A stretch of DNA of 64,000 nt, from contig JBAQNP010000017.1 of assembly GCA_049303905.1 (NCBI GenBank), positions 4-64,003 on the forward strand, given 5' to 3'. The DNA comes from Candidatus Moraniibacteriota bacterium. Lineage in GTDB: Bacteria > Patescibacteriota > Minisyncoccia > Moranbacterales > UBA2206. The position numbers and the translations under genes were made by a program. Positions within the stretch are counted from its first letter, which is position 1; each line of letters starts with the position of its first letter. Below, in pieces: positions 43,032 through 44,861 of this stretch. The notes under the pieces are model-generated. The model saw only the letters and a list, made by a program, of their open reading frames with translations, made no database searches and was not told where the DNA came from.

Positions 43032-43547
43032 TCACGAATTTGTCAAAAGCTGATAAATTTTTCTTTCACTGGCACGAATGGAACGAACTCTTTCTAAGAG
43101 TTCCAGAAAATAATCCTTGCCAAAATATTTTCCATTCTTTAATCTCTCATCATCCATCGTAAAGCCTTTGATAATATATTCCCTGAGTCTTTCTGTCGCC
43201 CAAATACGAAATTGAGTAGCCTCTGCTGAATTAACTCGGTAACCTACGGAAATGATGGCGTCGAGATTATAAAATTTGGTTTGATATTTTTTGCCATCAT
43301 TGGCAGTATATTCCAAAGTGGAATGAACTGAATTTTCCAGTAATTCACCGCTTTCAAAGATATTTTTTAAGTGTTTGGCAATAGCTGGCTGCTGCACGCC
43401 GAACAATTTAGCCATCTTATCTTGAGTGAGCCAAATATTTTCATCATGAAAGTATATTTCTACTTTTACTTTGCCATTTGGAGCTGTATAAAGCAGAAAT
43501 TCCGTTAGTTCGTTTTTTATGGTTATTTTGTGATTATCTTGAGCCAT
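43032..43547 (-). pseudogene. Truncated RhuM-family gene (N-terminal half only)
   Basis: WLTQDKMAKLF...NLDAIISVGYRVNS...ATQFRIWATERLREYIIKGFTMDD matches the N-terminal half of 7274..8314; stops where the full-length homolog continues. Confidence 0.6.
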
Positions 43548-43640
43548 AATATTTCCTATATAAATAGATTTTACTTATATTTTTAAAAGGCAGATTGAGA
43601 GCAAATTCTTTTTTACCCCCTTATAAATAAATCCCTTATG

Positions 43641-43712
43641 TAGGGGTGGATGGAGTTGCACCACCGACCTCCGCTAAGTAAAAGCAGCGCTCTACTACTG
43701 AGCTACATCCCT
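43641..43712 (-). tRNA. Degenerate tRNA-like sequence (possible tRNA-Val TAC or tRNA remnant)
   Basis: Minus strand: D-arm GCTC-AGTAGTA-GAGC; anticodon stem CTGCT/AGCGG with loop TTTACTT; T-arm GGTGG-TGCAACT-CCATC; acceptor has an A-C mismatch and pyrimidine 37. Confidence 0.4.
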
Positions 43713-44861
43713 ATTTTTTATTGATTTATCATTTTTAAAACTTTCGTATCTTAAATTAAATTCATCAACAACGAATTCAATAGACTCTTCTAAGTCACGA
43801 TGCCATGGATTTAGTTTTGAATTTAATTCACACAAATCTTTAACTAAAGTTGATGAAAAATCAATGTTAAGTTTGCCAAGTGCGCTAAAAAACCCTCGAT
43901 AAAAATTGCGTATATATTCCTTTCTTCTCGTATTTAAATTTTTGTAATAATTTCCTTCGGAAGTTATTTTATGAATTGCTCGAAATGCTTGAATTGCCAC
44001 AATAGCATTATTTTTTTCAGGAATTGATGATTTTTGCATCATTAAATCAATCAACGGATAAATTATATCAATTTCCCAAATCGCCTTTTTGTCATTAACT
44101 ATTGCAGCAATTCTCTCTAATCCAACTACGGAAGTGCCGAAACAATGGTCAAATGGAACTACATCTGAAATATTTTTCTGCTCGTCAAAAAGTGGTCGAT
44201 AGGTCAAATATTCAACCGTGCCAATATCCCATAATTCACCATCATATTCATAAAGCATTTCATAGCGATAACCCCACGGCGTTGGCAACCCAAAAACATT
44301 CAATGCTAACATCGTATCTCGACTTTTATCTGGCACAAGTTGACTTTCTTTTAACCCCAACTCGAACCAGTATTCATAAAATGGGTCAGTCGGAAAAACT
44401 TTATCCATCTTGTATTTTCCATTTGTCGCTTCTGGAATCGGAGTTTCAATAAAGTAAAGAATTTTTAATTTATTCAAATCAAGACCGACACTTTTAAAAA
44501 AATCCAGTTCCGTCTTCATGTGAAATTTTGTAACCTCCTCTTGTTTTGTTGAATCTTGCAAAATTGTCATTCCACCAATTCCAGCCATATCGAACAAATT
44601 AAGATATCGGAATGAGCTCAATCCATTATTTATAATTTTTTTCCAATCTTCATGGCGGATGCAAGGCTGAATTGTTGTAAAAACTAAATCCTGATCATAA
44701 TCAAGATATTGACCATACAACTCATGCATTGGACCCTCGCCAAAACTCAAGTTAAAACACGATGGAAACCCAGAATTTACAAGATTTGCTGGCTTTACTG
44801 CTTTTGTGCCTTGATATTTTGAAAAGTTTTCGATGATTTTTCGCAATTCTATTGTTTCCAT
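43695..44861 (-). CDS. AlaRS-like class II aminoacyl-tRNA synthetase catalytic-core protein (no editing or C-Ala domains)
   Basis: VFTTIQPCIRHEDW resembles AlaRS TSQRCVRAGGKHND; VVGLERIAAIV resembles AlaRS GMGLERIAAVL. Confidence 0.45.
   Translation of the reverse strand: METIELRKIIENFSKYQGTKAVKPANLVNSGFPSCFNLSFGEGPMHELYGQYLDYDQDLVFTTIQPCIRHEDWKKIINNGLSSFRYLNLFDMAGIGGMTILQDSTKQEEVTKFHMKTELDFFKSVGLDLNKLKILYFIETPIPEATNGKYKMDKVFPTDPFYEYWFELGLKESQLVPDKSRDTMLALNVFGLPTPWGYRYEMLYEYDGELWDIGTVEYLTYRPLFDEQKNISDVVPFDHCFGTSVVGLERIAAIVNDKKAIWEIDIIYPLIDLMMQKSSIPEKNNAIVAIQAFRAIHKITSEGNYYKNLNTRRKEYIRNFYRGFFSALGKLNIDFSSTLVKDLCELNSKLNPWHRDLEESIEFVVDEFNLRYESFKNDKSIKNRDVAQ

Follow-up and report, generated by a model that had tools for sequence, protein, structure and literature searches.

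Few truncated relatives of the alanyl-tRNA synthetase (AlaRS) core are known from the literature covered in a limited search, namely AcmF and the viral mini-AlaRS. For both the viral mini-AlaRS and AlaRS fragments, acceptor-stem helices alone suffice as charging substrates (PMC10036535). AcmF, a protein of ascamycin biosynthesis, transfers Ala from Ala-tRNA to a nucleoside sulfamate; it is reported to have lost most ATP-binding residues, and its gene belongs to a biosynthetic cluster of Streptomyces that also encodes a dedicated AlaRS, AcmD (PMC12945691). Synthetase-family genes lying beside an unusual private tRNA are those of the ProRSx-tRNAProA, CysRS*-SelC* and PylRS-tRNAPyl pairs, in which the tRNAs decode codons and the enzymes have the parental or a known specificity (PMC9437257), and GluQ-RS is a truncated synthetase that modifies RNA (Salazar 2004, as cited in PMC9437257). 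A tRNA used outside translation is the non-proteogenic tRNA-Gly of S. aureus, with TGC or TGT in place of TTC in the T loop and poor binding to EF-Tu and the ribosome (PMC7826273). In this study, a 64-kb stretch (the window) of a contig from a metagenome-assembled genome (MAG) of Candidatus Moraniibacteriota, a member of the candidate phyla radiation (CPR), was analysed. It contained an open reading frame (ORF) for a 388-amino-acid (aa) AlaRS-like protein that runs into a non-canonical tRNA gene, and the ORF and the tRNA very probably form one functional unit, that is, a synthetase-like paralogue with a dedicated non-canonical tRNA. Neither the protein family nor the tRNA class was described in the literature covered by the limited search, and such a family is likewise absent from the synthetase paralogues reviewed in 2022 (PMC9437257).

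Sequence similarity of the 388-aa protein to known families was low. Pfam PF01411 gave E=0.031 and 13.2 bits and NCBIfam alaS (TIGR00344) gave 17 bits, so that the respective cut-offs of 30.3 and 457 were not reached, and AlaRS fragments from the Protein Data Bank (PDB) were matched at E=4e-4 around motif 3 only. The AlphaFold2 model, built on 31 homologues, had a predicted local distance difference test score (pLDDT) of 94.2 with residues 382-388 below 50; these last seven residues were disordered in the model, and the end of the ORF is encoded by the tRNA gene. It showed a class II catalytic domain (about aa 1-255) and a short helical tRNA-recognition domain (about aa 268-376), and the two modules that complete the four-module architecture of AlaRS, editing and C-Ala, were absent. 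The top Foldseek matches, extending over the whole length, were the AlaRS catalytic fragments 4xem, 3hxu and 1riq (human, E. coli and Aquifex enzymes; E~1e-17, template modeling (TM) score 0.74, 16-22% identity). Because these matches are AlaRS catalytic fragments, the modelled protein is an AlaRS catalytic domain with a shortened tRNA-recognition domain. This agrees with the preliminary description, made from the DNA letters alone, which had likened the ORF to the AlaRS catalytic core only and had noted the missing editing and C-Ala domains. No alaS, editing-domain or C-Ala gene was found among the window ORFs of at least 200 aa.

The Tupanvirus mini-AlaRS (PMC10036535) and the AlaRS fragments thus share the two-domain architecture and the fold of the window protein. 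They are, however, true AlaRS, with a strong PF01411 match, an alanine pocket and a G3:U70 tRNA-Ala substrate, whereas the window protein has a sub-threshold PF01411 match, a different pocket and a linked tRNA with G3-C70, and is about 60 residues shorter. The alpha subunit of bacterial GlyRS (GlyQ) was far weaker as a structural match (E~1e-6, TM 0.3-0.4), and a GlyQ-like identity was rejected on this ground. The window protein, GlyQ and the small AlaRS of CPR and DPANN fall within a single AlaRS/bacterial-GlyRS branch of the class II catalytic domains, and the small AlaRS occurs in the same kinds of organism; unlike the window protein, it keeps the editing domain, and no bacterial-type GlyRS is reported in CPR (bioRxiv 10.1101/2023.05.29.542759).

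Active-site residues were counted in 142 family members and mapped via the E. coli and Aquifex AlaRS chains and a canonical AlaRS-containing protein. The E. coli numbers R69, D235 and G237 were read directly from the PDB chain alignment, and W170, E183, E209, N212 and V214 were obtained from a constant offset to the Aquifex chain; the residues are assigned here to a nucleotide site and an alanine pocket according to their established roles in AlaRS structures. The class II motifs of the nucleotide site were retained. The motif 2 Arg (E. coli R69) was R69 in 141 members, the adenine-stacking Phe of the F-E-M strand was F90 within F-(D/E)-M in 138, E. coli E209 corresponded to D/E212 in all 142 and E183 to E201 in 140 (Asp in the other 2), and the G-x-E-R of motif 3 was represented by G247, E249 and R250 in 142, 139 and 142 members, respectively. 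Both the motif 2 and the motif 3 Arg, which the preliminary description had left to an alignment, are therefore present. In contrast, the alanine-pocket residues were not retained: L185 replaced W170 (136/142), T215 replaced N212 (141/142) and E217 replaced V214 (133/142), G237 was variable (A, G or V; V245 in the window protein), and D235, the anchor of the alpha-amino group, was I, V, A, L, G or T and never Asp (T243 in the window protein). Residues newly invariant in the family were D72, three residues past the motif 2 Arg, G197 and R199.

Since the ATP-site motifs are invariant while the alanine pocket has been replaced, the family is very probably capable of nucleotide binding, and its sequences suggest that it is built to handle something other than alanine. 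Of the two identities considered in the preliminary description, an AlaRS-like paralogue with another substrate is thus favoured by the replaced alanine positions across the 142 members. Half of a split AlaRS is not, because the alanine-pocket residues are replaced; the protein is, as judged from these residues, apparently neither the housekeeping AlaRS nor half of a split one, and further points are the sporadic occurrence of the family, its presence on a 4-Mb Rokubacteria contig and the lack of a partner ORF of at least 200 aa in the window. Across a broader group of 27 short AlaRS-like proteins (P0164-P0219; 350-420 aa), R69, D72, F-E-M and G-E-R were kept and T215 was found in most, and position 217, the equivalent of AlaRS V214, was L, W, F, V, I, Q, N, H or E. 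This variation suggests that position 217 behaves like a specificity-determining residue. As the nucleotide-site residues persist while position 217 varies, it is suggested that truncated AlaRS-like enzymes have radiated into forms with different substrates.

The window tRNA scored 53.5 bits with Rfam RF00005 (gathering score 29), with one non-standard acceptor pair flagged. Its acceptor stem, AGGGAUG/CACCCCU, contained a single mismatch, A5.C68, and was followed by the discriminator A73 and then C-A; the D-loop AGUAGUA lacked G18-G19, the T-loop UGCAACU had G55 at a position where U55 is universal in tRNAs, and the anticodon loop was UUUACUU, with U at 37. About 135 related loci were collected and scanned with ARAGORN and then with a covariance model built from 18 linked tRNAs. 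With this model, the window tRNA scored 87.3 bits and the RNAs of the class 82-93 bits (57-69 for some variants), versus 55 or less for the canonical tRNAs in the same loci. RNAs of this class, about 73 nucleotides (nt) long and with A73 and C74 after the acceptor stem, immediately followed the gene in 21 distinct loci, the proteins of which were 36-78% identical to that of the window. Their acceptor stem consisted of (A/G/U)GGG(G/A)(U/C)G paired with (C/G)(A/G)(U/C)CCC(U/C/A/G). All 18 aligned members had the D-loop A-R-N-A-G-Y-A, without a GG doublet, and the T-loop U-G-C-R-A-N-N, with G for U55, so that the canonical elbow (G18-G19, U54-U55-C56) is missing from the class; the predicted elbow keeps G19:C56 and has A:G in place of G18:U55. 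The UGC T-loop was seen in none of the approximately 40 other tRNAs in these loci, which had UUC, or UCC in a few cases, and a D-loop GG. Elsewhere in the window, a tRNA-Gln(UUG) at 3346-3418 (+) had the T-loop UCCGAAU, with C55, and was otherwise canonical (Rfam 64.5 bits), and the UCC T-loop was also found in tRNA-Lys of L096 and tRNA-Thr of L047; position 55 seems to be relaxed in these lineages.

Compensatory changes were observed in 10 of the 19 predicted stem pairs among 18 related sequences, and the tertiary 15:48 pair was G:C or A:U in 17 of the 18. Because the cloverleaf pairs and 15:48 covary, the linked RNA is under selection for an L-shape. Single-sequence folding gave no cloverleaf (z = -0.13) and was uninformative, and covariation was used instead. 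Pair 5:68 was a wobble in about 18 of 22 cases, usually G.U, and A5.C68 itself was found in the window and in the relatives L134/L135 and L136, whose proteins are 62-78% identical and whose tRNAs have the same body. The A5.C68 "mismatch" is therefore, by its recurrence, a conserved feature, and the wobble may be likened to the G3.U70 that AlaRS reads in tRNA-Ala, although the linked tRNA has G3-C70 and not G3:U70. The preliminary description had rightly noted the mismatched stem and the odd T-loop and had taken the sequence as degenerate; the ARAGORN call as tRNA-Val(UAC), the Rfam score well above 29 and the recurrence of the odd features in orthologous loci refute the latter point. Apart from this class, matches to the tRNA model of 96-118 nt without an ARAGORN call were found at L028 5847-5942, L069 3847-3942, L032 1133-1250 and L102 1016-1133, two of them just upstream of a family gene; as tRNAs, they may owe their length to introns or to some other expansion.

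The anticodon arm varied widely. UAC in the window changed to UAU, on the same body, behind a 78%-identical protein, and CAC or AAC was present in others. The window tRNA, with U37, departs from the canonical 7-nt loop having U33 and a purine at 37; G33 or C33 occurs among relatives, and some have no anticodon loop. In L003, L005, L006 and L009, the arm was an 8-10 bp hairpin with a loop of 4-5 nt (GCAA in L003). A second kind of linked RNA, class II and 83-96 nt long, was located behind the gene in L001, L007, L014, L060, L017 and L063; these RNAs were clearly derived from tRNA-Leu, and their anticodon arm ended in a 3-6 nt loop (GCAA in L063). Among the RNAs without a 7-nt loop, those of L003 and L063 barely reached the Rfam tRNA threshold and the others in the rescanned loci were not reported. 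The ARAGORN assignments 'tRNA-Leu(UAG)' for L003 and 'tRNA-Lys' or 'tRNA-Phe' for the class II-like RNAs were rejected, as the supposed anticodons lay inside tetraloops or long hairpins. In L001 and L007, a canonical tRNA-Ile(UAU) was present 7 kb from the odd tRNA-Ile(UAU). The flip between UAC and UAU, the loop-less arms and the duplicate tRNA-Ile(UAU) in L001 and L007 argue that the anticodon is dispensable and that decoding is not required for the role of the linked RNA. As the loop-less RNAs would be unusable by ValRS and IleRS, an anticodon-independent enzyme is called for.

The two genes are physically joined. The ORF continued in frame through the 5′ end of the tRNA (AGG GAU GUA GCU CAG UAG, read as R-D-V-A-Q-stop), as the preliminary description had indicated by the overlap, and it terminates at the UAG in the D-loop of the tRNA; on 5′ processing of the tRNA, the mRNA would therefore lose its stop codon. 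In related loci, the tRNA started 9, 17 or 20 nt before the ORF stop codon, and the C-terminus of many homologues, (R/G)GVAQ(Q), was the translated 5′ end of the tRNA. Just before the tRNA start (window 43713-43740, protein residues ~373-382), a C-terminal motif (N/S)DKSxK was found only in members with the ORF running into the tRNA; it was conserved at the protein level, with varying synonymous third positions. In a neighbour-joining tree of the proteins, all tRNA-linked loci fell into one clade, in which 24 of about 32 members were linked. Its deeper branches (L013, L029, L064, L066 and L078) adjoined canonical tRNA-Val(UAC) or tRNA-Ile(UAU), and its crown, including the window, had odd tRNAs. 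When all ORFs within 5 kb were clustered for about 126 loci, no conserved protein-coding neighbour was found, the commonest family (MFS transporter) occurring in 7 loci only, and a conserved operon partner was thus rejected. Since the tRNA stays in one clade while every other neighbour has been shuffled, the linkage is old, has outlasted the reshuffling of all else and is confined to a single branch of the family; that it is genuine is hardly in doubt.

Homologues formed 73 clusters at 90% identity, nearly all of 350-420 aa. A profile search of 1.84 billion protein representatives returned 101 at E<=1e-30 and, with the looser limit of E<=1e-10, 214, with few exceptions in the same length range. 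The family was sporadic, with 50 loci among 185,579 species genomes. According to the genome records, the hosts included Moranii-, Paceibacterota, Vogel-, Buchanan- and Berkelbacteria in CPR and Pace-, Woese-, Nano- and Iainarchaeota in DPANN, and members were also present in a few Rokubacteria and deltaproteobacterial MAGs, including a 4-Mb Rokubacteria contig. Among the carriers are the window MAG (protein MFZ2975449.1), GCA_028718785.1 and the 483-kb contig Ga0393997_0000003. Public records name these proteins "hypothetical" or "AlaRS family profile domain-containing". No relative was found in IMG/VR or among INPHARED phages, and a phage or virus origin was rejected accordingly. A conserved C-terminal extension of ~150 aa was observed in L051/L121 (Berkelbacteria), P0078, P0094 and P0123, with sub-threshold matches only (TrmB regulator C-terminal domain, E=0.01; DUF7436, E=0.001); in L001, a TrmB-family gene, divergently oriented, adjoined the family gene. 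At L133 8001-10733 (P0203, Logan DRR673950), a 910-aa tandem fusion was encoded, of which the N-terminal half was a relative of the family (hhalign 98%) and the C-terminal half a canonical AlaRS core (PF01411 E=4e-124); its gene lay among those for GAF histidine kinases, response regulators and a TIR-domain protein.

Taken together, the locus looks like a private enzyme-tRNA pair beside normal translation and not like a decayed remnant, and the favoured, still tentative, reading is that the protein itself charges the linked tRNA. The protein would recognise the acceptor helix of its private tRNA and ignore the anticodon, as AlaRS does, the 5:68 wobble and A73 being candidate identity elements. 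It would activate a substrate other than alanine as the acyl-adenylate and esterify that substrate to the 3′ end of the tRNA, and the charged RNA would serve as an aminoacyl carrier apart from ribosomal translation. Such an off-ribosome carrier is likened to the staphylococcal non-proteogenic tRNA-Gly because the same UGC-for-UUC change is found in the T-loop; the two also have in common the absence of a pseudouridine-55 site, an altered D/T region and extra copies beside isoacceptors, the last seen here only in L001 and L007. The staphylococcal tRNA differs in that it is charged by the ordinary GlyRS, is used by Fem transferases in cell-wall synthesis, keeps a Gly anticodon and has no dedicated synthetase-like gene attached. 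The ProRSx, CysRS* and PylRS pairs resemble the window locus in gene arrangement, and the window pair differs from them in its dispensable anticodon arm and bare AlaRS core.

Several observations weigh against self-charging of this kind. D235, the AlaRS anchor of the alpha-amino group, is absent, and we infer that D72 or E217 substitutes for it. The surviving 7-nt loops keep U33, A35 and Y36 (UAC, UAU, CAC, AAC), which would fit charging by ValRS or IleRS, or decoding, and is unexplained by the favoured model. Within the window, neither a canonical tRNA-Val(UAC) nor an alaS was found, and the window genes use GUA and GUG codons, for which a tRNA-Val(UAC) is needed. The C55 of the window tRNA-Gln means that strict conservation of position 55 does not hold in this lineage, and G55 alone is therefore no proof of exclusion from translation. 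A large DPANN-rich clade has no adjacent tRNA, so that a private tRNA is no general requirement of the family. Finally, no transferase gene was linked to the family gene in the neighbour survey, which covered Fem, MprF, L/F-transferase and CDPS-like genes among others.

A different division of labour, in which ValRS, IleRS or LeuRS charges the odd tRNAs and the protein passes the branched-chain aminoacyl group on as an AcmF-like aminoacyl-tRNA-dependent transferase, is unlikely, though it deserves a serious hearing. The linked RNAs trace back to tRNA-Val, tRNA-Ile and tRNA-Leu; A35 and Y36, which ValRS and IleRS require, are retained in the Val/Ile-like ones, and the Leu-like class II ones lose an anticodon that bacterial LeuRS does not need. 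AcmF is likewise a truncated AlaRS-like protein of aminoacylation and tRNA-recognition domains only, with changes at the equivalents of N212 and D235, and the alanine-binding residues are lost in the window family as well. However, the ATP-binding residues invariant here are, as far as AcmF can be compared by its description, mostly lost there; the family has no biosynthetic cluster or conserved partner gene, its partner being a non-canonical tRNA gene; and the loop-less Val/Ile-type bodies (L003, L005a, L006, L009) would not be chargeable by ValRS or IleRS. Those anticodon-less RNAs also tell against an action on the tRNA other than 3′ aminoacylation, such as the joining of an activated acid to a base in the manner of GluQ-RS, as an anticodon-loop target would be missing from them, and a non-catalytic protein that binds tRNA or has a regulatory role is disfavoured by the invariant nucleotide site. 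This possibility, improbable on balance, draws on the existence of RNA-modifying truncated synthetases, on the U34-A35 kept in surviving loops and on the conserved overlap of ORF and tRNA, through which 5′ processing that removes the mRNA stop could couple both.

The linkage could, alternatively, have no function, the RNA being an ordinary tRNA-Val(UAC) with lineage quirks and the paralogue having inherited its place beside a tRNA-Val/Ile cluster. The canonical tRNAs adjoining the deeper branches suggest that the position may be ancestral, and the window needs a tRNA-Val(UAC), of which ARAGORN found no other in the 64 kb. Such an origin has little to recommend it when the tRNA stays while every other neighbour is shuffled, when the odd elbow is confined to tRNAs behind the gene (those of the ~73-nt class and, in L014 and L060, the class II-like RNAs) and is missing from all of about 40 others, when anticodon-less copies cannot be housekeeping tRNAs, and when L001 and L007 carry a duplicate tRNA-Ile(UAU). 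An orthogonal pair acting on the ribosome, which would place another amino acid at GUA/GUG codons (AUA in relatives) and cause mistranslation or recoding in the manner of ProRSx-tRNAProA or PylRS-tRNAPyl, is very unlikely. The canonical D- and T-loop signature is also absent from tRNAPyl, a canonical 7-nt anticodon loop persists in many linked tRNAs (CUUAUAC, for example), and GUA and GUG are used by the window genes. Genetic coupling of synthetase paralogues with anomalous tRNAs has precedents (PMC9437257). Against these stand the linked RNAs without an anticodon loop, the pyrimidine at 37 in the window copy and G33 or C33 in relatives, the Val/Ile anticodon flip in close relatives and the canonical tRNA-Ile(UAU) coexisting in L001 and L007. 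Its boldest form, at least as unlikely, would be sense-codon recoding in CPR: a new member of the AlaRS/bacterial-GlyRS branch would have a novel, possibly non-proteinogenic substrate, and in loci that, like the window, keep the anticodon loop, the tRNA would still reach the ribosome and place that substrate at GUA/GUG (AUA in relatives). Least credible of all is the idea that the ORF represents one half of a split housekeeping AlaRS, or else a remnant in decay next to a decayed integration site at a tRNA: the missing editing and C-Ala domains and the truncated RhuM gene 3′ of the tRNA (a recombinase in L137) would suit it, but the pocket is not an alanine pocket, the tRNA has G3-C70 and not G3.U70, the family is rare and patchy with an ORF that is intact and confidently folded, and the tRNA is complete and conserved, with no att repeat found in the window.

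The features of the window are listed below. The sole terminator-like site on the (-) strand in this region was at 45648-45623, upstream of ybeY; because none was found between ybeY, the AlaRS-like ORF and the tRNA, the three are likely co-transcribed, and ybeY is context only and not a conserved neighbour.

Features of the window in and around the AlaRS-like gene and in the defence island
Feature	Position	Strand	Basis or remark
AlaRS-like ORF, 388 aa	43695..44861	(-)	annotated as hypothetical protein
Non-canonical tRNA, anticodon UAC	43640..43712	(-)	ARAGORN tRNA-Val(tac); Rfam RF00005
ORF/tRNA overlap, 18 nt	43695..43712	(-)	sequence
RhuM-family truncated ORF, 171 aa	43032..43547	(-)	PF13310
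ybeY (endoribonuclease), directly upstream of AlaRS-like gene	44992..45438	(-)	PF02130 E=1.6e-21
TOTE-type AEP primase-helicase	4959-7163		defence island
Full-length RhuM, 346 aa	7274-8314		defence island
Type I restriction R subunit	8643-11237		defence island
Fused M+S subunit	11242-13656		defence island
Abi_C protein	13660-14421		defence island
Reverse transcriptase	15140-16117		defence island

The RhuM ORF on the 3′ side of the tRNA matched PF13310 with E=2.3e-41 over profile positions 2-99 of 252 only, in keeping with the N-terminal fragment noted in the preliminary description. By tblastn, it matched residues 9-167 of the 346-aa RhuM of the defence island with 46% identity, lower than the roughly 55% given there, and nothing matched residues 168-346. 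It is probably a mobile-element remnant 3′ of the tRNA that lies outside the enzyme-tRNA unit; the downstream neighbour was different in every related locus, and RhuM was in this position in no other. An integration scar was rejected, as the window showed no att-type repeat of the tRNA exceeding 10 nt and the GC content of the AlaRS-like gene (33%) matches that of the window (36%). The decayed integration site of the preliminary description thus does not hold for the tRNA, which is complete and covarying and keeps its junction with the gene in 21 loci, and is plausible only for the truncated RhuM fragment. In L137 (4094-7093), the AlaRS-like gene and an odd tRNA (AAC) were situated between an HTH_17 excisionase-like gene, which precedes the AlaRS-like gene, and a large serine recombinase, which occupies the position of the RhuM fragment 3′ of the tRNA; a canonical tRNA on the opposite strand overlapped the 3′ end of the recombinase gene, and a SocA_Panacea gene was nearby. 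The gene-tRNA unit of L137 may be on, or beside, a mobile element, and the odd tRNA, like many other tRNAs, may attract such elements. In the remainder of the window, 4959-16117 was a dense defence island, and a 968-aa ORF adjoining ftsZ (36323-39229, (-)) had no significant Pfam match and a weak match to a beta-flower domain (E=0.002).

The family would be a further branch within the AlaRS/bacterial-GlyRS group of the class II synthetases, one that is widespread in both radiations of ultra-small symbionts, CPR and DPANN. The linked tRNA is the obvious candidate substrate, which makes the hypothesis directly testable in vitro. If the protein charges this RNA, the two would constitute a natural anticodon-independent orthogonal pair of direct use in genetic-code engineering, and a new instance of aminoacyl-tRNA chemistry outside translation, in organisms of little-known physiology.

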